Positions 11,035 to 46,200 of a DNA stretch of 64,000 nucleotides are shown here, piece by piece. The DNA comes from Escherichia coli. Its GTDB lineage: Bacteria > Pseudomonadota > Gammaproteobacteria > Enterobacterales > Enterobacteriaceae. The stretch's first letter is position 1. Each line of letters starts with the position of its first letter. The notes under the pieces were generated by a model. That model was not told the origin of the DNA and searched no databases. It worked only from the letters and a program-made list of their open reading frames with translations. A program made the position numbers and the translations under genes. Location: NCBI RefSeq assembly GCF_001677475.2, contig NZ_CP015229.1, one strand, 5' to 3'.

Positions 11035-11122
11035 GTTCACTGCCGTACAGGCAGCTTAGAAATTCACAGGTAACATACTCCACCCGCCCACCATGTTCAC
11101 TGCCGTACAGACAGATAAAATG
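11035..11122 (+). CRISPR. Orphan type I-F CRISPR remnant: two 28-bp repeats and one 32-bp spacer, no cas genes in the window
   Basis: Repeat 1 gttcactgccgtacaggcagcttagaaa (11035..11062); spacer ttcacaggtaacatactccacccgcccaccat (11063..11094); repeat 2 gttcactgccgtacagacagataaaatg (11095..11122), degenerate at its 3' end. The repeat matches the I-F (Ypest-type) consensus I recall. The clpA-infA interval is a known site of such arrays in E. coli. Confidence 0.8.
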
Positions 11123-11165: not shown

Positions 11166-11253
11166 TGGCGGTGAGGGGGGGATTCGAACCCCCGATACGT
11201 TGCCGTATACACACTTTCCAGGCGTGCTCCTTCAGCCACTCGGACACCTCACC
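11166..11253 (-). tRNA. serW: tRNA-Ser (anticodon GGA)
   Basis: Reverse complement reads GGTGAGGTGTCCGAGTGGCTGAAGGAGCACGCCTGGAAAGTGTGTATACGGCAACGTATCGGGGGTTCGAATCCCCCCCTCACCGCCA: acceptor stem, long variable arm typical of tRNA-Ser, T-arm GGTTCGAATCC, encoded CCA end. Confidence 0.9.
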
Positions 11254-25838: not shown

Positions 25839-25863
25839 TACCCAATTTTTCTGAATCTAAAAA

Positions 25864-25885
25864 GCGCCTGCGGGCGCTTTTTTTG
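25864..25885 (+). terminator. Intrinsic terminator downstream of serS
   Basis: gcgcc-tgcg-ggcgc hairpin immediately followed by ttttttt. Confidence 0.75.
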
Positions 25886-26076
25886 TCTCCCTTTGATACC
25901 GAACAATAATTACTCCTCACTTACACGTAATACTACTTTCGAGTGAAAATCTACCTATCTCTTTGATTTTCAAATTATTCGATGTATACAAACCTATATA
26001 GCGAGCTGCTATAGAAATAATTACACAATACGGTTTGTTACTGGAATCAATCGTGAGCAAGCTTGAGTGAGCCATT

Positions 26077-33778: not shown

Positions 33779-33785
33779 TCATCAT

Positions 33786-33803
33786 GCCCCGGTTCGCCGG
33801 GGC
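33786..33803 (+). terminator. Hairpin just downstream of ycaM (weak terminator candidate)
   Basis: gccccgg-ttcg-ccggggc perfect inverted repeat 8 bp after the ycaM stop; no clear U-tract. Confidence 0.35.
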
Positions 33804-34875
33804 TGTGATATCAAATAGACTAAAATTAGATCAGGCCTGATAAGGCAAAAGTTAAGTTTTTCTTAAGAGATGAAAGAAAATCAACGCTACCGTGATAATA
33901 CGAATTTTAGTTATCGGAGACCATTATTTTTAGATATGGTGATAGTTTTAATTATTGGTTATTTTGCAAGTTATTATTTTGGGCTCTGGAGTAAACTCTT
34001 GCGCATAGTAATAACATGATTTTTACGGCTAAATTTTCAACAAAGATTGGTAATGTAAACTCGTATTTTTTGATTTGCATCAATGAATTCGCACGTTGCT
34101 AATTATGGTTAAATTTGCTGAGAATGATTGCGGTTATTGTTTGGATATGCAGATGGTATATTGATTCACTGGCGTAATATTCTGTAAAAATTATATTTTA
34201 TAGTGTTTTAATCTGGCAAAAATCATCTCCCGACAGAATCTTCTCATGCCTGGTGTAGTTCACAGTCTTTTGTTTTAAAAATAAAATAGTGCTCTAATGT
34301 TGCATCTATTGTTTTATCGAGCGTGTGTTCCTGAAAATATTTATCTGTTAGGTTGATGGACAAATTACAGCCTGGGCAGTGAAATTTTCACGATCACTTT
34401 CTGACTAAATCTTACTTTAAGGTTACTGATTAATATATTTGGGCTAAGAGAGTCGTATTACACATGTCTCAAAAAAGATAAATAAACAGAAAGGATTACT
34501 CACAATAGATACTAATAACACTTTTGGATAGTTATAGAGTAGAAGCCACGACTCAGCAGGATGTAGTAGCTGTGTTGTTATAAGTTAATTTTTTCATGGC
34601 TAAATTATTTCGTTGAAAAATTAACGAAAGGCGGTAGCGTGGGTGAAAGATACAAAATGAGTGTTACATATAACAATATTACCTTGGTTAAAATAGAATG
34701 AATGATAATCACCTGTGGAAATTAAGAAAAAAGTAATCTTCTCATCATGATATATTTTTTATATGGAATAGTGAAATTAATAAAATCATAAAGAGGAGAG
34801 CAACATCGTCTAATATACAGAACGTTATACGATATGATATGAAGCTATTAATAACATTTTAGTCAGAATACCAGT

Positions 34876-37224
34876 ATGTATAGCATTACCGAAAAATTAA
34901 ACTCAAGATTTAACACTGCGGTTATATTAGCTGTTACTGTCTATATTGTCTTGTCATTTATTACCGCAATTGATTTCCATAAAAAAATAGCAGAAAACTC
35001 TGCACAGATTAACCTTATACTCATCAATAACAATTTGAATAATTTTTTTTCTAAAGTTGAAAAAGAGGCTGATGCATTAAAAGATGCAATCTATCTGTTA
35101 CATGATGAAGATGAAATAAAGCGAGCAGTCCTTCATCGCATGAAAAAAATAGACGCGGTTAATTTAGTAGGGATAATGCTCAATAATGGAAAATATCTTA
35201 GCTTTATTCGAACTGAGAATGGGGAGGTAAAATTTCTGGGGCAATCAGAACCCGGTAAACCTTTTATTGGTGACGATGGTGATATCAGCGATAACTACTT
35301 TAATCCGGAATCACGCCCATGGAATAAATTACCGAGGGGGACTTATTCAAAATGGTCACCATGGTATAATTGTTATGGTATTGCCGGAAAAAAATGTTTT
35401 TCGTTTTCACTACGACCATCCGAAGAAGAAAAAAATTCATTTGCTTTGAAGTTAATACATCTGGATGTTGATGAAAAATATTTCAGTAATTTTTTAAATA
35501 AACTGGGTGGTGATTCTGATATTTTATTCATGGAACAAAACAAAAGGATTATGGTGGGTAATGAAAAATCAATGTTACATCTTATTGTCCGTGATTTATC
35601 GGGAAGTTATAACATAAGCAATAATAGTGGCAACTATACAGACAATGTTATCTCACTCCCCTGGCTTCCTGATGTCAGATTCCATTATTTCCACTATCAA
35701 AAATCAGAAGATACAAACATCAATAAATATTTTACACTGATGTTTTTATGTGGCTTGGTTTGTTTCTGTTTATTATGGTATATCGTTGAAAAAATAACAA
35801 GAAAAATCAAAGGTGAATCCAGCAAACTGATAGAACATCTGAAAAAATTAGCTAATTCAGTATATCGCAACGACACAATTGATATTGTGCAAAATGACAG
35901 TGGTGAGATTGTTGAACTCAAAAAGATCATTAATAATATCAGCGATAAATACAAGGAGCGTATGGACCGATTACTTAATCTTGTGTCCTATGAACAAGGA
36001 AGTTGCTTTTATATTAATAAGGCTATTATTGAAACTAATAATAAAACCTATTTGGCAATTGGTATGCTTTGCATCTATGGATTAGAGTTTGTTGAAGCGG
36101 TATATGGAAATCAGAAATTTCATGAGATTTTTAATGATATAAAATCTAAGATATCACAAAAATATTCAAAATATTGTGATATCGTAAAAATCTCAACTGA
36201 AACATACTTGTTGCTATGTCACACTGATTGCGAAGAGTTCATCGAAAAATTATCGGTTTTAAACTTTCCTGAACATATATTTTGCATAAGAAATATATAT
36301 ATCCACAAGATTGCCATTTGCGAAAATTTTTCAGGGGAAAATGTATCGATTTATGAAAGGAAACTGAAACTGGCATTAACAGCTATGCGGGAAAATAAAG
36401 AATCTGAATTTATTTTTTATGATGACATCAAAGTCCATGAACTTGATCAAAAGGTCTGGGTGGCAGGAAATATAAAAAAAGCGATTGCGAGTAATGAGCT
36501 TTATTTAGTATATCAACCGATTGTTGATATGGATAATAATAGGGTTGTAGGCGCAGAGGCGTTATGTCGCTGGTTGTCCTGCGAAAATGGGGTAATACCG
36601 CCATCAATTTTTGTACCTGTTGCTGAAGAAATAGGATTAATTAAAGAACTGGGTGATTTTGTTCTCGAAACAGCTATTAGCGAATTTGGGGTGTTTAGTT
36701 GTGAATATGAGGTTGCTAACGATTTTCTCCTGCATATCAATGTTTCTCCCTGGCAATTAAATGAATTTGACTTCCACACTCGTGTTCTTACTTTAATTAA
36801 TGCATTTGGTGTAAATGTTGAACAAATCTGCCTGGAGATCACCGAATCAGCAGTAAAAGATATAAATGATAGCTTTTACAATAATATAAATATTTTAAAA
36901 GAAAATGGTATCAAGATTTCCCTTGATGATTTCGGAAGTGGATTAGCTGACCTGAAAAAACTTTATAAAGTAAGACCTGATAGCATTAAAATTGATTCAG
37001 AGTTTACCTCTGGTATTTTCGATGAAACTAACAAGGTTGTATATTTTATATCCAATCTTGCTCGTGAAGAAAATATGCCGGTAATAGCTGAAGGTGTTGA
37101 AACTGAAAGTCAGGCTAGAGAGTTGCAAAAATTAGGATTTTCTCATGTTCAGGGATACTTATACCAGAAACCGTTACCGTTTTCAGAATGGCATATAGAC
37201 AACAAACCGAAAAAAAGAAAATAA
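34876..37224 (+). CDS. Membrane-bound c-di-GMP phosphodiesterase: TM, periplasmic sensor domain, TM, cytoplasmic linker region, EAL domain
   Basis: 782 aa. Hydrophobic helices near residues 15-35 and ~285-305. EAL-domain motifs all present: QPIVD, EALCRW, NVSP, LEITES, DDFGSG, KIDSEF, AEGVETE, QGYLY. No GG(D/E)EF signature upstream of the EAL domain. Confidence 0.85.
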   Translation: MYSITEKLNSRFNTAVILAVTVYIVLSFITAIDFHKKIAENSAQINLILINNNLNNFFSKVEKEADALKDAIYLLHDEDEIKRAVLHRMKKIDAVNLVGIMLNNGKYLSFIRTENGEVKFLGQSEPGKPFIGDDGDISDNYFNPESRPWNKLPRGTYSKWSPWYNCYGIAGKKCFSFSLRPSEEEKNSFALKLIHLDVDEKYFSNFLNKLGGDSDILFMEQNKRIMVGNEKSMLHLIVRDLSGSYNISNNSGNYTDNVISLPWLPDVRFHYFHYQKSEDTNINKYFTLMFLCGLVCFCLLWYIVEKITRKIKGESSKLIEHLKKLANSVYRNDTIDIVQNDSGEIVELKKIINNISDKYKERMDRLLNLVSYEQGSCFYINKAIIETNNKTYLAIGMLCIYGLEFVEAVYGNQKFHEIFNDIKSKISQKYSKYCDIVKISTETYLLLCHTDCEEFIEKLSVLNFPEHIFCIRNIYIHKIAICENFSGENVSIYERKLKLALTAMRENKESEFIFYDDIKVHELDQKVWVAGNIKKAIASNELYLVYQPIVDMDNNRVVGAEALCRWLSCENGVIPPSIFVPVAEEIGLIKELGDFVLETAISEFGVFSCEYEVANDFLLHINVSPWQLNEFDFHTRVLTLINAFGVNVEQICLEITESAVKDINDSFYNNINILKENGIKISLDDFGSGLADLKKLYKVRPDSIKIDSEFTSGIFDETNKVVYFISNLAREENMPVIAEGVETESQARELQKLGFSHVQGYLYQKPLPFSEWHIDNKPKKRK

Positions 37225-37228
37225 AGCA

Positions 37229-38569
37229 ATGTTCAAATATAAAAAAAAGGCGGCAGTGATCTGTTTTTTGTATTTTTTGTGCGTCGCTGTAGTAACTTGT
37301 TATTTGTACACCATTCATGTTAAAGGCCGTATAAATTCGGTGAAGGTATCTATTGTAGATAGTGGGCTTGCAATAGCTAATGTTTCTGAGTATCGCCGCT
37401 CAGTATCTAATAATATATTTTATGAACTTGAGGTTTCGCCAGAAGAGTTGTTAAAAAAAATACGCAATAGCTTTGCTGGCTATGAAAACCCTGGATATTT
37501 GTATGATCTCGGTCCTTATATGATTAGCGATGGTAAATGTATCAAAGTCACAACGAAAGGAGATAATTTTTGTGACGACATAGTTTCCTCTATTAGGGTA
37601 ATTAATGAATTTGAAAGAGGCATTATTAGCTTAAAAAATAAGTGCTATGTTTATTATGCTCATCCCATTGCAAAACGTACAAGTTTGATATCAGTGGTAG
37701 ATCCTGAACGTTATTTATCTTTGATAAGAAATCAATCAGGGGAACGAGAAGATATCTATGTATCATTTTATGATATTAATGATAATGAAAAGAAAATCGC
37801 AGGTGATGATTTTTTGATAAATGATGCAGTATTTGAGATGTCAGCTATCACTCTGTCGTATTCTTATCTTCCAGAAATGATGTTTATTGTTGCCTATAAA
37901 AAAAGTAAATATCTATATATATGTGCGTTTTTCGTTTTTGCATCGGCAATATCTGCAGTCATAATGTATGTTTATTATGTTAAATTATTGCGTGATATTA
38001 TAAATAAGGGTAGATTGGAAAAAGAATCTATATTGTCGAATCATCAATATGATTTACGTGGAGAAAATCTATTCTTTAATACGGAAGAGATTAATGCAAT
38101 TCGAGAGATATATGACTTTGGCACTTGTGATGCATTAACCAGGGCTTCTGGTCGCCGGAGTTTTGATAAAGAAATCAAGATACTGAGAAAAAATTTTGGC
38201 TACCTGTGTCTATTTGATGTGGATAAATTTAAAACCATTAATGATAAGTTTGGTCATTTATTTGGTGATGAAGTACTCATCAAACTTGTTAATATCATTA
38301 AAGAAGAGTTACCCCGTCGTGAAGGGGAAATATACCGGTTTGGCGGTGATGAGTTTGCTATTATTTATTATGAGAAAGATAAAAATAAGCTATCAAGAAT
38401 TTTGCACAGAGTTGTTCATTTCGCCATTGGTGGGTTAAATTGTAGTTGCAGTATAGGTGTTGCCAGCACAGATGAGTGCATGAATAACATTGAACGGTTG
38501 AAATTGCTGGCAGATGAACGGTTATATAAAAGTAAGCAAAATGGCCGAGCACAGATAACGTGGTGTTGA
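37229..38569 (+). CDS. Membrane-bound diguanylate cyclase: TM, periplasmic sensor domain, TM, GGDEF domain
   Basis: 446 aa, starting 5 bp after the upstream stop. Two hydrophobic helices flank a ~200-aa periplasmic segment. GGDEF-domain motifs: DALT..RR, LFDVDKFKTINDKFGH, GDEVL, RFGGDEFAIIY, ADERLYKSKQNGR. No RxxD inhibitory site immediately upstream of GGDEF. Confidence 0.85.
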   Translation: MFKYKKKAAVICFLYFLCVAVVTCYLYTIHVKGRINSVKVSIVDSGLAIANVSEYRRSVSNNIFYELEVSPEELLKKIRNSFAGYENPGYLYDLGPYMISDGKCIKVTTKGDNFCDDIVSSIRVINEFERGIISLKNKCYVYYAHPIAKRTSLISVVDPERYLSLIRNQSGEREDIYVSFYDINDNEKKIAGDDFLINDAVFEMSAITLSYSYLPEMMFIVAYKKSKYLYICAFFVFASAISAVIMYVYYVKLLRDIINKGRLEKESILSNHQYDLRGENLFFNTEEINAIREIYDFGTCDALTRASGRRSFDKEIKILRKNFGYLCLFDVDKFKTINDKFGHLFGDEVLIKLVNIIKEELPRREGEIYRFGGDEFAIIYYEKDKNKLSRILHRVVHFAIGGLNCSCSIGVASTDECMNNIERLKLLADERLYKSKQNGRAQITWC

Positions 38570-38653
38570 TATTTTAATTTGCATGGCATTGGTCATCGAT
38601 GTTTACAAAAATCACACAGTTCAAGTTATATTATTAATGAATCGTTAAGTGCA

Positions 38654-40768
38654 ATGCTCATAAAAAATAAAGTAATATTAAACAAAATCCTTTTGGTTGT
38701 TGCTATACTGCTATGTTTTGTTTTTTTATCAATTGTTGAACAGCCCCTTGGATTTTATCAACAAACATTATTTTCAATTATTATTTGTATCGCTGCTATC
38801 TTCCTTAATTTTCTCAAAGGAAGGATAATTACTCTGATTCTAATGGGTGTTGGAATACTCATATCATCCCGATATCTATGGTGGCGTTACTCTTCTTCAG
38901 TAATCCTGGATGAATTTCCAGACTGTTTATTTTCAGTCACGCTATTAGTTGCTGAGACGTATGCATGGTTTGTTTTATTACTTGGTTACTTTCAGGTTTG
39001 CTTCCCGCTGAACCGAGAAAGTATACCCTTACCAGAGAATAAAGAAGAATGGCCCGTTGTTGATATATTAATCCCCACATATAACGAACCCTTTACAGTC
39101 GTTAAGAATACAGTTTATGGTGCGTTGGCCTTAGACTGGCCAACGGATAAATTAAATATCTGGCTCCTTGATGATGGCGCCAGGGACGAGTTCAGGAAAT
39201 TCGCGAACGAGTTAGGTATTTACTATGTCGCAAGAGAAACACATGAACATGCTAAGGCCGGAAATATAAATAATGCGCTTAAAATAGCTAATGGCGAATT
39301 TGTTGCTATTTTCGATTGCGATCATATACCCTCGGTTTCTTTTTTAAAGAAAACGATGGGCTGGTTTATCGCCGATAAAAAATTATCGATGTTGCAAACA
39401 CCACATCATTTTTTTTCCCCCGACCCTTTTGAGCGAAATTTGGGGCAGTTTCGGCAAAAGCCAAATGAAGGACACCTTTTTTATGGGTTAATCCAGAATG
39501 GTACGGATACATGGAATGCTTCATTTTTTTGTGGTTCATGTGCAATCATCCGTAGATCTGCTCTGGATGAGGTTGGAGGCATTGCAGTCGAAACAGTAAC
39601 AGAAGATGCGCATACGTCGTTACGCTTGCATCGTGCAGGTTATAGCTCTGCGTATCTTCGCTATCCTCTGGCTGCCGGGCTAGCCACCGAAACATTGTCT
39701 GCTCATATTGGACAACGGATTCGGTGGGCTCGAGGCATGATTCAAATCTTGCGTATTGACAATCCATTATTGGGCAAGGGGCTGACATTATCACAGCGCC
39801 TTTGCTATCTCAGCAGCATGATGCATTTTTTATCAGGTGTGCCACGCCTGATTTTCTTGTTCGCACCGTTATGTCCTATTTTCTTTTCGGTCAATCTGAT
39901 CGATGCATCAGTTGCAGATATTATGTCTTATGTTTTACCTTATCTATTTGTTATTATTTTAACTAATTCAAGAGTACAAGGTAAATACAGACATTCATTC
40001 TGGAATGAGATTTATGAAATGGTTCTGGCCTGGTATATTACGCTACCAACGCTTGTAGCTTTACTTGCGCCAGCAAAAGGTCGTTTTAACGTTACGGCCA
40101 AAGGGGGACTGATAAAAAATAAGTTTGTTGACTGGCGAATTTCCTATCCCTATCTTATTTTTGCTATTTTAAATGTAATCGGGCTGATAATAGGTGTTAT
40201 TAATGTTTATAGTTTGCAAGGGCATATTGCCATCTTGAATTTGTTTTGTTTAATCTGGTTGTTTTATAACGCAATTATTATTGGCGCAACTTTGGCTGTT
40301 TCTATTGAACAAAAGCAGGTGCGTTTTTCTCCCCGTATTGATGTTTCTTTCAAGGGCGTTATACAACTGGATGATGGACGGCGCTATCCTTGTTCTGTTC
40401 TTGATTTTTCCGAAGGAGGATTAGGTGTAATCCTTGATAATATCTCCGACGTAAAAGATATGCTTAAAGCACAGCAATTGTCTCTTTATCTGGATGATAG
40501 CAACGGGAAATGTGATATTCCGGTAGAAATAGTTCATGCTTACAATAATAAAATTGGTCTGAAGATTATGCCAATGAGTTATGAACAAAGTGTTAATTAT
40601 GTAAGAGCAACGTTTTCTCGTGATTCATTATGGCAAGAGTGGAATAATAAAATTAGACGGGACAATATTCTAAAGAGTTTTTTTGAAATATGTTTCATCT
40701 CTCTGAAAGGTTATTGCAATATGGTTTTTTATATTCTGCGGACACTGAAAAGCAGTTCCAAAAGTTAG
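38654..40768 (+). CDS. BcsA-like family-2 processive beta-glycosyltransferase with C-terminal PilZ domain (c-di-GMP-gated synthase)
   Basis: ORF 38579..40768 begins with TTG; first in-frame ATG is at 38654 (704 aa). Catalytic motifs: DDGARDE, FDCDH, QTPHHFFSPDPFERN, FFCGSCA, TEDAHTSLRLH, QRIRWARG. PilZ motifs RFSPRID and DFSEGGLG. Confidence 0.85.
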   Translation: MLIKNKVILNKILLVVAILLCFVFLSIVEQPLGFYQQTLFSIIICIAAIFLNFLKGRIITLILMGVGILISSRYLWWRYSSSVILDEFPDCLFSVTLLVAETYAWFVLLLGYFQVCFPLNRESIPLPENKEEWPVVDILIPTYNEPFTVVKNTVYGALALDWPTDKLNIWLLDDGARDEFRKFANELGIYYVARETHEHAKAGNINNALKIANGEFVAIFDCDHIPSVSFLKKTMGWFIADKKLSMLQTPHHFFSPDPFERNLGQFRQKPNEGHLFYGLIQNGTDTWNASFFCGSCAIIRRSALDEVGGIAVETVTEDAHTSLRLHRAGYSSAYLRYPLAAGLATETLSAHIGQRIRWARGMIQILRIDNPLLGKGLTLSQRLCYLSSMMHFLSGVPRLIFLFAPLCPIFFSVNLIDASVADIMSYVLPYLFVIILTNSRVQGKYRHSFWNEIYEMVLAWYITLPTLVALLAPAKGRFNVTAKGGLIKNKFVDWRISYPYLIFAILNVIGLIIGVINVYSLQGHIAILNLFCLIWLFYNAIIIGATLAVSIEQKQVRFSPRIDVSFKGVIQLDDGRRYPCSVLDFSEGGLGVILDNISDVKDMLKAQQLSLYLDDSNGKCDIPVEIVHAYNNKIGLKIMPMSYEQSVNYVRATFSRDSLWQEWNNKIRRDNILKSFFEICFISLKGYCNMVFYILRTLKSSSKS

Positions 40769-40833
40769 TTCTAATTTCTGACTGCTAATTAAATATATTG
40801 TTTGTGTTTATTATGGTTGTTGAATTTTTTAAA

Positions 40834-43134
40834 ATGGAAAGAAAATTTTTGAGATTAAGTGCTGCGATAATTGGCTTGGGGTTATTATGTTTTTACCAGG
40901 CAAATACAGCATCGGCTACAGATACAGTAACCAGTAAGTCTTCCTCTGGAGAAGTATTACCATCTATCCAGAAGACAAATATCTCTGCTTATGAGAAAGA
41001 GTCGTCTCGCCATTTTAAACTCCCATTTACACAAATCGCACCAGCTCCAGGAAACATAGTCCTGAATGGCGTTAACCCACAGGGGCAAATTGAGTTTGGT
41101 ATGCGTAGCGATGAAATAGTATCAGAAGCAAAACTAAAACTTGAATACACTACATCACCGTCGCTGATCCCTGTCCAGTCACAGCTTAAGGTCTATCTTA
41201 ATGACGAGTTGATGGGGGTATTGCCGATTACCAAAGAACAACTGGGGAAGAAAACGCTGGCGGAAATAACTCTTAACCCATTGTATTTTTCTGATTTTAA
41301 TCGCTTGCGCCTCGAATTAATTAGTCACTACCAGAGCGCCTGTGAAAACCCGACCAGCAGCAATTTGTGGCTTGATATTGGACGTACCAGTGAACTTGAA
41401 CTGGTATTTCAGAGACTTAATCTGAAAAATGATCTTTCATATTTTCCTGTACCGTTTTTTGACCCGCGAGATAACCGCACTAATACATTGCCGATGGTTT
41501 TTGCAGGTACTCCTGAGACTGGTTTGCAGCAGGCATCAGCTATTGTCGCTTCGTGGTTTGGTGCGCAATCTGGCTGGCGTGGTCACCGATTTCCGGTTTT
41601 CTATAACCAGTTACCGGAAAGTAATGCAGTGGTCTTTGCCACTAACAATAGACGCCCGGACTTTCTGCGCGAGCATCCGTTGGTGAATGCGCCTGTTATT
41701 AAAATGATCAGTCATCCACAAAATCCTTTTATCAAATTGCTGGTACTTTTGGGCCGCGATGACAAAGATTTATTACAGGCGGCAAAAGGCCTTGCACAGG
41801 GAAATATACTTTTTCGCGGCGATAGTGTGATCGTAAATGAAGTGACGCCGTTACTGCCGCGTAAACCTTATGATGCGCCAAACTGGGTACGCACTGACCG
41901 TCCTGTAACTTTCGCAGAGCTTAAAAATTATGAAGGGCAGTTACAGGCAAGTGGCCTGGAGTCTGCGGCAATTAATGTTTCATTTAATTTGCCACCTGAT
42001 CTTTTTCTATTGCGTAATCGTGGGGTTGATATGAAGATTAACTATCGCTATACCACGCCAACGATAGGTGGTTCACGCATGGATGTCAGCCTTAATAACC
42101 AGTACCTTGAATCTTTCCGGCTAAGTCCGCAATCTGCTACCGATAGATTGTTGTTACGTTTACCGTTATTGCAAGAATTGTTGGATGGTAATAATGGAAT
42201 TACCATTCCTGCGCTGACGTTGGGGGCGCTTAATCAATTGCGATTTAATTTTGAGTACATTAATACAATGCCGCGTTCTGATGCTGATAGCTGTATTATT
42301 TCCAGGCCTCTAAAAAATCATGCGGTTATTGCAGATGATTCCACTATCGATTTTTCAAAGTACCATCACTTTATCGCAATGCCAGATTTACGCGCTTTTG
42401 CCAGCTCAGGCTTTCCATTTAGCCGCATGGCCGATCTATCAGAAACGGTTGTGGTTATGCCTGAAAATCCTGGTACAACGCAAGTTGAAACATTATTAAA
42501 TACCCTTGGACTGATTGGTGCTCAAACTGGATTTCCGGCAATTAATCTGACAATTACTGATGATATAGGTTCTGTCCAGGGTAAGGATTCAGATATTCTG
42601 CTTATAGGAACACTTCCGCAAGAATTTGCAGATAAACAGCAAATTAATCTGCTCATTGAGGCAACAACGAGTTGGGTAAAAAGCCCAATGCGGAACACTG
42701 ATTACGCAAAAATTATGGCAGATAAAAACGATCAAAAACCTGAAATACAAACAACTATAAATTCCCCATTGCCAATGGCGGCGATAGTTGGTTTTCAGTC
42801 CCCATATCATGCCCAACGTAGCGTAATTGCTTTAATGTCCGAGGGATCACGCGGCGATACGCTACTCAACAATGCGTTAATTAATAGTACAAAACGCGGC
42901 AATATTTTTGGTTCAGTCGCGGTTATTCGCGAATCTGGCGTCAATAGTTTACAGGTTGGAGATACTTATTACGTTGGGCATCTCCCCTGGATTGAACGAG
43001 TGCAATATGTGTTAGCCAGACACCCCATTCTACTGGCAGTCCTGGCAACTCTCAGTGTGGTGCTATTGGCGTGGGTAGTATGGCGTCTGTTACGTAACAT
43101 TAGTCGCCGTCGTCTGAACCCTCATCAACAGTAA
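40834..43134 (+). CDS. BcsB-like periplasmic synthase subunit with C-terminal membrane anchor
   Basis: ORF 40798..43134 begins with TTG; start taken at MERKFLRLSAAIIGLGLLCFYQANTASA (signal-peptide-like). C-terminal single TM helix ILLAVLATLSVVLLAWVVWRLL followed by basic residues, as in BcsB. Confidence 0.8.
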   Translation: MERKFLRLSAAIIGLGLLCFYQANTASATDTVTSKSSSGEVLPSIQKTNISAYEKESSRHFKLPFTQIAPAPGNIVLNGVNPQGQIEFGMRSDEIVSEAKLKLEYTTSPSLIPVQSQLKVYLNDELMGVLPITKEQLGKKTLAEITLNPLYFSDFNRLRLELISHYQSACENPTSSNLWLDIGRTSELELVFQRLNLKNDLSYFPVPFFDPRDNRTNTLPMVFAGTPETGLQQASAIVASWFGAQSGWRGHRFPVFYNQLPESNAVVFATNNRRPDFLREHPLVNAPVIKMISHPQNPFIKLLVLLGRDDKDLLQAAKGLAQGNILFRGDSVIVNEVTPLLPRKPYDAPNWVRTDRPVTFAELKNYEGQLQASGLESAAINVSFNLPPDLFLLRNRGVDMKINYRYTTPTIGGSRMDVSLNNQYLESFRLSPQSATDRLLLRLPLLQELLDGNNGITIPALTLGALNQLRFNFEYINTMPRSDADSCIISRPLKNHAVIADDSTIDFSKYHHFIAMPDLRAFASSGFPFSRMADLSETVVVMPENPGTTQVETLLNTLGLIGAQTGFPAINLTITDDIGSVQGKDSDILLIGTLPQEFADKQQINLLIEATTSWVKSPMRNTDYAKIMADKNDQKPEIQTTINSPLPMAAIVGFQSPYHAQRSVIALMSEGSRGDTLLNNALINSTKRGNIFGSVAVIRESGVNSLQVGDTYYVGHLPWIERVQYVLARHPILLAVLATLSVVLLAWVVWRLLRNISRRRLNPHQQ

Positions 43135-43246
43135 TTCATCATCATTTCTATTTTGCGGCTCCATTCTGTCCTGACTTTATACAGGCAGGGAGCTGCGCCC
43201 GTTCTGTTTTTAATAAAAAGTGAGTTAACACCTGATTGAGGCAGGC

Positions 43247-46200
43247 ATGTACAAATTCACCCTAAATTTACTCACAATATCCCTTGGTTTGGCGGTAATG
43301 TCGATGGCGAAAGCCACACCAACTGTACACAAGCTGTTAATGGCGCAGATTCGGTTAGGCGAAGACATTCATCGTGAAGATCTGGTCGAACAGTCGCTTT
43401 ATCGTCTTGAATTGGCGGAACCTGATAATCCAGATGTCGTTGCGGCGCGTTTTCGCTATCTGCTGCGTAAGGGGGATATTGAAGGTGCGCAAAAACAACT
43501 TGCCAGACTTTCCCTGTTCGCTCCTGATTCAAAAATATATAAAGCATCGCGCACGGCCATGCGACTTTCTTCGCCTGAGGGGCGTCAGGCACTGCAAATG
43601 GCACGCTTACAAGCTATCTCCGGGCGACATAAAGAGGCTATCGACAGTTACGACAAGCTATTTAACGGGGCACCGCCAGATATCGAAATGGCGCTGGAAT
43701 ACTGGGGGGCAATGACGCAAATTTCCTCCCGTCGCAACGAAGCGATTCGTCAGTTGAAAATACTTAATATTGATAATCCTGACTCTGGTGCCATATTTGG
43801 GGCGCTGGGGCAGGCGTATTCCCAGAATGGCGATCGCGCTAATGCGGTGGCGAATCTGGAAAAAGCCCTCGCACTGGATCCGCACAGCAGCAACAACGAC
43901 AAATGGAACAGTCTGCTGAAGGTGAATCGCTACTGGCTGGCGATCCAGCAGGGCGATGCTGCGCTGAAAGCCAATAATCCTGACCGCGCAGAGCGTCTGT
44001 TCCAGCAGGCGCGCAATGTCGATAACGCCGACAGCTATGCGGTGCTGGGGCTGGGCGATGTGGCGATGGCGCGCAAAGATTACCCCGCCGCCGAACGTTA
44101 TTATCAGCAGACGCTGCGTATGGACAGCGGCAACACCAACGCCGTGCGCGGGCTGGCGAATCTTTATCGCCAGCAGTCGCCGGAAAAAGCCGAAGCGTTT
44201 ATTGCCTCGCTCTCTGCCAGCCAGCGGCGCAGCGTTGATGACATCGAACGCAGCCTGCAAAACACGCGTTTATCACAGCAGGCAGAGGCACTGGAAAATC
44301 AGGGTAAATGGGCGCAGGCGGCAGCACTTCAGCGCCAGCGACTGGCGCTCGATCCCGGCAGTGTGTGGATTACTTACCGGCTTTCGCAGGATCTCTGGCA
44401 GGCCGGACAACGCAGCCAGGCCGATACGTTAATGCGCCATCTGGCGCAGCAGAAGCCGAACGACCCGGAGCAGGTTTACGCTTACGGGCTGTATCTCTCT
44501 GGTCATGACCAGGACAGAGCGGCGCTGGCGCATATCAACAGCCTGCCGCGCGCGCAATGGAACAGCAATATTCAGGAGCTGGTTAATCGACTGCAAAGCG
44601 ATCAGGTGCTGGAAACCGCTAATCGCCTGCGAGAAAGCGGCAAAGAAGCTGAAGCGGAAGCGATGCTGCGCCAACAACCACCTTCCACGCGTATTGATCT
44701 CACGCTGGCTGACTGGGCGCAACAACGACGTGATTATACCGCCGCCCGCGCTGCATATCAGAATGTCCTGATGCGGGAGCCAACTAACGCCGATGCCATT
44801 CTTGGTCTGACGGAAGTGGATATTGCTGCCGGTGACAAAGCGGCAGCACGTAGCCAGCTGGCGAAACTGCCTGCCACCGATAACGCGTCGCTGAACACTC
44901 AGCGGCGCGTGGCGCTGGCACAGGCGCAGCTTGGCGATACCGCAGCGGCGCAGCAGACGTTTAATAAGTTGATCCCGCAGGCAAAATCTCAGCCGCCGTC
45001 GATGGAAAGCGCGATGGTGCTGCGCGACGGTGCGAAGTTTGAAGCGCAGGCGGGCGATCCAAAGCAGGCGCTGGAAACCTACAAAGACGCCATGGTCGCA
45101 TCCGGTGTGACTACGACGCGTCCGCAGGATAACGACACCTTTACCCGACTGACCCGTAACGATGAGAAAGATGACTGGCTGAAGCGCGGTGTGCGCAGCG
45201 ACGCGGCAGATCTCTATCGTCAGCAGGATCTTAACGTCACCCTTGAGCACGACTACTGGGGATCGAGTGGCACCGGTGGTTACTCCGACCTGAAAGCGCA
45301 CACTACCATGTTGCAGGTGGATGCTCCGTATTCTGACGGGAGGATGTTCTTTCGCAGTGATTTCGTCAATATGAACGTCGGCAGTTTCTCCACTAATGCC
45401 GATGGCAAATGGGATGACAACTGGGGCACCTGTACATTACAGGACTGTAGTGGCAACCGCAGCCAGTCGGACTCCGGTGCCAGCGTGGCGGTCGGCTGGC
45501 GAAATGACGTCTGGAGCTGGGATATCGGTACCACGCCGATGGGCTTCAACGTGGTGGATGTGGTCGGCGGCATCAGTTACAGCGATGATATCGGGCCGCT
45601 GGGTTACACCGTTAACGCCCACCGTCGGCCCATCTCCAGTTCTTTGCTGGCCTTTGGTGGGCAAAAAGACTCTCCGGGCAATACCGGGAAAAAATGGGGT
45701 GGCGTGCGTGCCGACGGCGTGGGGCTAAGCCTGAGCTACGATAAAGGTGAAGCAAACGGCGTCTGGGCATCGCTTAGCGGTGACCAGTTAACCGGTAAAA
45801 ATGTCGAAGATAACTGGCGCGTGCGCTGGATGACGGGCTATTACTATAAGGTCATTAACCAGAACAATCGCCGCGTCACAATCGGCCTGAACAACATGAT
45901 CTGGCATTACGACAAAGATCTGAGTGGCTACTCACTCGGTCAGGGCGGTTACTACAGTCCGCAGGAATACCTGTCGTTTGCCATACCGGTGATGTGGCGG
46001 GAGCGCACGGAAAACTGGTCGTGGGAGCTGGGTGCATCTGGCTCGTGGTCGCATTCGCGCACCAAAACCATGCCGCGTTATCCGCTGATGAACCTGATCC
46101 CGACGGACTGGAAAGAGGATGCCGCCAGCCAGACCAACGACGGCGGCAGCAGTCAGGGCTTTGGCTACACGGCGCGGGCGTTACTTGAGCGTCGCGTCAC

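Follow-up and report, generated by a model that had tools for sequence, protein, structure and literature searches.

The 64,000-nucleotide stretch of Escherichia coli DNA analysed here (the window; contig NZ_CP015229.1 of assembly GCF_001677475.2) contains, at positions 34876..37224 (+), an open reading frame (ORF) of 782 residues plus the stop codon that encodes a PdeI/YliE-like sensor phosphodiesterase. Its ortholog in E. coli N3 is annotated as a 'sensor domain-containing phosphodiesterase'. The hydropathy scan of the 782-residue product reports a first transmembrane helix (TM1) at residues ~14-32, followed by a periplasmic CHASE9 sensor domain (residues 35-150, 34978..35325 (+); Pfam PF17153, E=2.5e-42). 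The second periplasmic half (residues 151-284, positions 35326-35727) is without Pfam match and is the least conserved part between paralogs, with 24% identity to PdeI of E. coli K-12; it is called 'xCache' in a preprint from the Romling laboratory (10.1101/2025.05.09.653004). The second transmembrane helix, TM2, covers residues ~285-305 (35728..35790 (+)), as indicated by Kyte-Doolittle 19-residue windows above 1.6 that start at residues 282-290, and the first helix of an AlphaFold model described below spans this region. At the other end of the protein, the EAL phosphodiesterase domain comprises residues 532-766 (36469..37173 (+); Pfam PF00563, 219 bits, E=6e-65). Its motifs EAL(C)R, NVS, EITE, DDFGSG, KID, EGVE, and QG are all present, and its best PDB sequence match is the EAL domain of DosP (E=2.7e-40). 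Judged from these motifs, the EAL domain looks active.

The segment between TM2 and the EAL domain is the subject of this report. The first-pass annotation had described it as a single region of ~220 residues, extending from around residue 300 to around residue 540 and devoid of both GG(D/E)EF and DxDxF..ND motifs, and had left two possibilities, a GGDEF domain that is highly degenerate and a regulatory domain of another type. These boundaries are correct within ~10 residues, and the absence of the motifs was confirmed by both regular-expression and profile searches. No GG[DE]EF, DxDxF, D.[DN].[FL]K..ND, or RxxD pattern occurs in the whole protein or in residues 299-542, the sole match to a relaxed pattern being ASNEL at residue 538, inside the linker helix where the EAL domain begins. 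As a positive control, the same expressions retrieve DVDKFKTIND at residue 330 and GGDEF at residue 372 of the adjoining cyclase (37229..38569). Pfam and NCBIfam report nothing significant in residues 299-542, used whole or as sub-fragments (80 residues for HAMP, 172 residues for the GGDEF-like part), and the middle region of K-12 PdeI is likewise without significant match in these libraries. For the GGDEF family itself (PF00990, gathering threshold 23.8 bits), no match was returned at E<=10 with the full protein, the middle region, the 172-residue sub-fragment, or K-12 PdeI. A phmmer search of the stretch against PDB sequences returned no match at E<=10 either. Pfam/NCBIfam matches such as Img2, Plk4_PB2, and V-ATPase_H_C were at chance level and were rejected. 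Searched against the PDB, the family profile matched only a cyclophilin at E=0.017 and, at E=0.82, a spike protein; these two hits were likewise attributed to chance.

The middle region (residues 287-545) has few relatives. An exhaustive HMMER search of 1.84 billion cluster representatives returned 16, all of them PdeI-like and none with a recognisable GGDEF domain that could serve as a bridge, and a word-indexed search with the stretch returned two fragments only.

Structure prediction assigns a fold to this region. The AlphaFold2 model 1 (residues 296-531) was computed from an alignment of eight family members only, and reaches a mean predicted local distance difference test (pLDDT) score of 70, with 80-87 in the core. 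It displays a helix-loop-helix followed by the topology α0-β1-α1-α2-β2-β3-α3-β4-α4-β5. Foldseek analysis of this model against the PDB reports 31 matches at E<=1e-3, nearly all of them GGDEF domains, the remainder being related nucleotidyl-cyclase-type domains. Model 2 (residues 361-775, 415 residues, pLDDT 78) exhibits the same topology, and its best matches are the tandem GGDEF-EAL structures of DosP, PA0575, MorA, PA0861/RbdA, and LapD (425-440 columns), with 6-19% sequence identity to their GGDEF parts. The predicted models thus reproduce the β1-α1-α2-β2-β3-α3-β4-α4 order of the GGDEF fold after helix α0 and resemble solved GGDEF domains. The degenerate GGDEF-fold domain, termed hereafter xGGDEF, should cover residues 361-516 (35956..36423 (+)), and a helix predicted at residues ~517-538 (36424..36489 (+); helix 157-178 of model 2) connects it to the EAL domain. 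In the phmmer alignments to DosP and MorA, this connecting region is matched to their GGDEF-EAL linker, and the match continues N-terminally of the EAL domain as far as the last helix of GGDEF. Inspected by eye, the first residues of the domain retain a trace of the DxLTGL motif in the form [DE]xxSxF. Profile-profile comparison with hhalign against nine Pfam-verified GGDEF domains gave E=0.011 for the whole stretch, and 0.002 (local, 125 columns) or 4.4e-4 (global, 151 columns) for the trimmed domain. The alignment is in register from β1 to the last helix, with STETY falling on GGDEF, and its score of 25.9 was reached by none of 200 column shuffles (mean 12.9, standard deviation 2.6, maximum 24.8).

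The xGGDEF domain is preceded by a second unit. AlphaFold predicts a helix-loop-helix directly after TM2, where hhalign places a divergent HAMP domain at residues 307-359 (35794..35952 (+)), consisting of an AS1 helix, a connector, and an AS2 helix, in which the segment GEIVELKKIINNIS is the counterpart of the DEIGxLxxxFNxM motif. The family profile of residues 301-375 was compared by hhalign with a set of nine Pfam-delimited HAMP domains (Tar, Tap, Tsr, EnvZ, CpxA, PhoQ, PdeK, and two metagenomic proteins). The 50 aligned columns, which take in HAMP positions 4-53 out of 56, scored 20.6 (E=8.8e-4), a value reached by none of 150 column shuffles (mean 8.1, standard deviation 1.6, maximum 13.0). 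The segment at residues 307-359 stays below the threshold of the Pfam HAMP family (PF00672) itself. If HAMP membership is defined by a helix-connector-helix unit of ~50 residues following a transmembrane helix, then, from its alignment and predicted structure, this segment is a divergent member. The region described earlier as a single stretch therefore exists as such, but it is made of two domains, a HAMP domain in its N-terminal ~55 residues and the GGDEF fold after it.

The fold of xGGDEF is not accompanied by the residues that make canonical GGDEF domains functional. These residues and their roles are given here in the numbering of PleD, and their equivalents were read from the hhalign register, not from a structural superposition. 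The Mg2+ ligand D327, at the end of β1, corresponds to G402, and the substrate-binding K332 and R366 to E407 and K438, respectively. The guanine pocket residues N335-D336 lie inside a 3-residue deletion, while the guanine-binding D344 aligns with H416, a position occupied by H, Y, D, N, or S in the family. H340, in a conserved turn, is replaced by N412. The phosphate-binding K442 and R446 correspond to R505 and to E509 (E, Q, H, F, or N in the family). The signature GGEEF (368-372) becomes STETY (residues 440-444, 36193..36207 (+)), located in the β2-β3 hairpin according to the hhalign alignment and the translation. The family variants at this position are STETY, SNDRY, SPYKY, NADLY, and SDKRF, NADLY being that of K-12 PdeI, so that only the last, aromatic position is kept; the position of the catalytic Glu varies among E, D, Y, and K. 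The RxxD motif of the I-site (R359-D362), five residues upstream of the signature, is replaced by SKYC (S431-K-Y-C434), and no RxxD is found elsewhere in the protein. In contrast, Gly411 (36106..36108 (+)), which the BLASTP register and hhalign equate with Gly412 of K-12 PdeI, retains the conserved Gly of the 'GH' turn found in GGDEF domains. The aligned residues thus contain neither the signature nor the Mg2+-binding Asp and substrate-binding residues of an active diguanylate cyclase, and the guanine- and phosphate-binding residues that a domain of the CC3396 type retains are absent as well. Because the Mg2+ ligand, the guanine pocket, the I-site, and the signature are all lost, catalysis, canonical binding of guanosine triphosphate (GTP), and I-site binding of cyclic di-GMP (c-di-GMP) by xGGDEF are all unlikely, as judged from the aligned residues. 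Of the two possibilities raised by the first-pass annotation, the highly degenerate GGDEF domain is hence the one supported: the fold is present in the C-terminal ~155 residues and its nucleotide-binding residues are all gone, which is not the merely divergent domain with conserved nucleotide-binding residues that would have spoken against that annotation. The evidence disfavours a different regulatory domain in its place, the HAMP domain being an addition on the N-terminal side.

The loss of these residues did not relax the constraint on the domain. The ratio of nonsynonymous to synonymous polymorphism (pN/pS), computed from the alleles of the window, N3, and E7-1N7, is 0.11-0.13 for residues 361-520 and takes the same value (0.11-0.13) for the EAL domain; xGGDEF is under purifying selection as strong as that acting on EAL. 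With 46% identity to K-12 PdeI, xGGDEF is the second best conserved part of the protein after the EAL domain (54%), the sensor and HAMP parts displaying 24-33%. The residues of xGGDEF that are invariant in the family are N388-N389 (36037-36042), C434-D435 (36175-36180), L446-L447-C448 (36211-36219), H477 (36304-36306), G487, and K496-L497, none of which belongs to the GGDEF consensus. A cross-strand disulfide or a metal site involving Cys434 and Cys448 was considered and dropped, since the hairpin register makes them diagonal neighbours with side chains on opposite faces of the sheet.

Together, these observations lead us to propose, with a probability of roughly 80%, that residues ~306-520 form a signal-transmission module of two domains too divergent for HMM searches to recognise, in which a HAMP domain following TM2 is succeeded by a pseudo-enzyme of GGDEF fold and by a long helix leading to the intact EAL domain. 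We infer that xGGDEF would serve both as a structural relay and as a scaffold for dimerisation. When the periplasmic CHASE9 sensor changes conformation, the movement would be propagated by TM2, by the four-helix bundle of HAMP, and by the helix that leads into α0 of the GGDEF fold; it would re-position the two EAL domains of the dimer and thereby gate the phosphodiesterase activity, a scheme that has a precedent in other sensor-HAMP/PAS-GGDEF(degenerate)-EAL enzymes. The enzyme and the co-transcribed DgcI-like cyclase may together set the local c-di-GMP concentration seen by the neighbouring accessory BcsA through its PilZ domain. In K-12 PdeI, the G412S substitution alters c-di-GMP output in vivo (PMC11651652, citing Reinders 2016), and the equivalence of this residue with Gly411 indicates that xGGDEF modulates the output of the protein. 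Gly411/412, together with N388-N389, C434-D435, L446-L447-C448, and H477, are mutational targets for probing such a relay function.

Several points weigh against this interpretation. At the sequence level the GGDEF signal, though consistent, is weak (hhalign probability 4-14%), and when PdeK alone was used, its HAMP-GGDEF part matched the family profile at E=0.72 only. A reversed-profile control scored 22.4 (37 columns), to be compared with 25.9 for the real GGDEF alignment, and the hhalign E-value for GGDEF was therefore not leaned on. The alignment behind the predicted fold is shallow, with 8 sequences, the overall pLDDT is 70-78, and a bias of AlphaFold toward a common fold is possible. Single residue equivalences may be off by one or two residues near the 3-residue deletion. 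Lastly, over-expression of PdeI was reported to raise c-di-GMP ~11-fold, and PdeI was read as a synthetase (PMC11651652); such a rise is at odds with a domain that only relays signals, if the effect is a direct one.

The alternatives to a relay module involve in part the neighbouring genes. The gene beginning 4 nucleotides past the phosphodiesterase stop codon (37229..38569 (+)) encodes a DgcI/YliF-like diguanylate cyclase of GAPES2-GGDEF architecture (Pfam GAPES2 E=5.5e-41, GGDEF E=8.6e-25) with intact motifs. A GAPES2-GGDEF gene comes after each of the PdeI-like genes identified, at a distance of 4-33 nucleotides from the stop codon (overlapping in the gene call of locus L011). The pair occurs in four independent contexts (the window; K-12; L009; L010/L011), two of which adjoin mobile-element genes, and the DgcI-like genes that follow PdeI-like genes include, beside that of the window, L002:9336-10664, L009:2079-3425, and L010:2012-3307. 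The most distant full-length relatives of the window protein (P0020 and P0022, 34-36% identity) are each followed by a GAPES2-GGDEF gene as well; one of their loci adjoins TraI and integrase genes, the other an IS200-type transposase gene and a BcsA/PilZ gene. The PdeI-like/DgcI-like pair behaves as one mobile module.

Catalysis by GGDEF domains needs a dimer of such domains. In a first alternative, xGGDEF would be a pseudo-enzyme forming a heterodimer with the GGDEF domain of the DgcI-like cyclase encoded next to it, and would switch this cyclase on or off within a single phosphodiesterase-cyclase sensory complex. The retention of the gene pair in all four contexts and the invariant surface residues that depart from the GGDEF consensus would both fit, yet gene adjacency is equally explained by a simple pairing of antagonistic enzymes. 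Such a heterodimer would also reconcile the c-di-GMP increase (PMC11651652) with a dead active site; against it, the K-12 DgcI protein is undetectable under standard conditions (PMC5635695). We consider this heterodimer improbable. The broader idea that the pair would constitute one signal-controlled make-or-break switch for the neighbouring cellulose synthase, with a GGDEF heterodimer gating the cyclase, is a long shot too, though, if true, it would explain why c-di-GMP rises in a Gly412-dependent manner in K-12 despite an intact EAL domain and a dead GGDEF domain.

A GTP-sensing role is also improbable in our estimation: xGGDEF would then be an allosteric module comparable to the GEDEF domain of Caulobacter PdeA/CC3396, which is catalytically dead, binds GTP, and activates its EAL domain. 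GTP sensing is a common role of degenerate GGDEF domains in GGDEF-EAL tandems (CC3396, PA0861/RbdA), the fold is retained here under strong purifying selection, and GTP-bound GGDEF-EAL structures (5m3c, 5xgd) are among the fold matches. However, the residues contacting GTP are missing (N335/D336 deleted, D327 replaced by Gly, D344 and R446 variable, the GG of the signature being S-T or variable), whereas the known GTP-binding degenerate domains keep most of them.

Still less probable is that xGGDEF is an unconventional but active diguanylate cyclase. The protein would then be bifunctional, or act on balance as a synthetase, a proposal already made for K-12 PdeI. There, the PdeI level correlates positively with c-di-GMP, and the ~11-fold rise on over-expression is lost in the G412S mutant (PMC11651652). 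The window protein, however, lacks both GG(D/E)EF and the Mg2+-binding Asp, its family varies at the position of the catalytic Glu, a deletion has removed the guanine pocket, and the EAL site is complete. An indirect effect, for instance via the co-encoded DgcI, could moreover account for the rise seen in vivo. We know of no GGDEF enzyme that works without GG(D/E)EF, the Mg2+-binding Asp, the catalytic Glu, and the guanine pocket. Finally, it is a very remote possibility that AlphaFold is wrong here and that the stretch is a regulatory domain of another kind (PAS, GAF, or a novel fold), even though the stretch goes unrecognised by all sequence-profile libraries, the family alignment is shallow, and the hhalign probabilities are low. 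The signal-transmission module with a degenerate GGDEF relay is hence the reading retained here.

The cyclase gene is followed by that of an accessory, PilZ-containing cellulose synthase, bcsA (38579..40768 (+)), identified from its ORF and from the annotation of the collinear N3 and E7-1N7 loci, and the first gene of a bcsABC cluster. The window is collinear with E. coli N3 (96.7% identity over 31.5 kb), and the gene order in N3 and E7-1N7 is ycaM, pde, dgc, bcsA, bcsB, bcsC, pflA. The phosphodiesterase gene is present in 9 out of 5426 complete E. coli genomes, and is chromosomal in all of them. The genes between ycaM and pflA form an island with a GC content of 32-40%, compared with ~51% in the flanks. 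Within positions 34001-46000 the composition is a mosaic, with 32% GC in pde and dgc, 38-40% in bcsA/bcsB, and 58% in part of bcsC (44-46 kb), which suggests that the bcsABC cluster was assembled from sources of differing composition. Between ycaM and pde, at the island's left edge, lies 1.1 kb of AT-rich DNA without coding sequence (33779-34875); a promoter/terminator scan of this gap returned no terminator-like site and promoter-like matches at chance level only. As an accessory bcsABC cluster of low GC content that carries a phosphodiesterase/cyclase pair, the island is of some interest for biofilm biology, and has already been described.

Two further features were observed elsewhere in the window. 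At 11035-11122 (+), next to a tRNA gene at 11169-11253 (-), one 32-nucleotide spacer lies between two CRISPR repeats of type I-F, GTTCACTGCCGTACAGGCAGCTTAGAAA and a second, degenerate copy (Rfam CRISPR-DR4, 50.1 bits); this element presumably corresponds to the short CRISPR3-4 remnant near clpA/infA/serW in E. coli devoid of I-F cas genes. At 25852-25986 (-), the enterobacterial small RNA STnc130 is matched over its full length (140 bits).

The window protein belongs to the PdeI/YliE family, as it possesses a CHASE9 domain, two transmembrane helices, a Pfam-silent region of ~230 residues, an EAL domain, and an adjacent GAPES2-GGDEF gene. It is a paralog of K-12 PdeI (YliE, b0833), to which it is 40% identical over 775 residues with five gap positions, both proteins comprising 782 residues. 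K-12 PdeI and DgcI (YliF) display the same Pfam pattern, namely CHASE9 and EAL with a blank in between and a GAPES2-GGDEF gene next to it, and differ in the hairpin, NADLY in PdeI and STETY in the window protein. K-12 PdeI has been described with a 'divergent GGDEF domain' (PMC11651652), whereas YliE was listed as 'EAL only' in an older survey (PMC3484386). In the portion available of the bcs2/bcs3 preprint (Hosseinpourlamardi et al., bioRxiv 10.1101/2025.05.09.653004), PdeI (YliE) is given as HAMP-xGGDEF-EAL, and the bcs2/bcs3 clusters represent the same kind of locus, Escherichia-restricted and composed of bcsABC with a YliE-like EAL and a YliF-like GGDEF gene; that portion reports the domain string and does not detail losses at the residue level. 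The window locus is very probably one of these chromosomal bcs2/bcs3-associated YliE/YliF loci. The motif-less stretch is therefore already known for PdeI and counts as an unremarkable trait of an established family; what is new here is the residue-level account and the selection analysis. They close an annotation gap, the window protein and K-12 PdeI, both labelled in databases as CHASE9 and EAL with a blank of ~230 residues, joining the standard sensor-HAMP-GGDEF-EAL class, and the residue losses caution against reading PdeI as a cyclase, as was done in a recent paper (PMC11651652).

Among the other enzymes of this class, PdeK (YhjK) follows the same logic, with a GAPES3-HAMP-GGDEF(degenerate)-EAL architecture, an active EAL domain, and a gene located beside the core bcs operon. 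Unlike those of the window protein, its HAMP (21.5 bits) and GGDEF (43.9 bits) domains are detected by Pfam, and its sensor domain differs too. DosP, MorA, PA0575, RbdA/PA0861, and LapD also keep a Pfam-positive GGDEF domain, several of them binding GTP or c-di-GMP, whereas that of the window protein does not score. In DosP and LapD, the GGDEF domains are non-catalytic and act in signal relay. In Caulobacter PdeA (CC3396), too, an active EAL domain is preceded by a degenerate GGDEF domain. CC3396 keeps the GTP-binding residues, GTP being its allosteric activator, whereas these residues are absent from the window protein.

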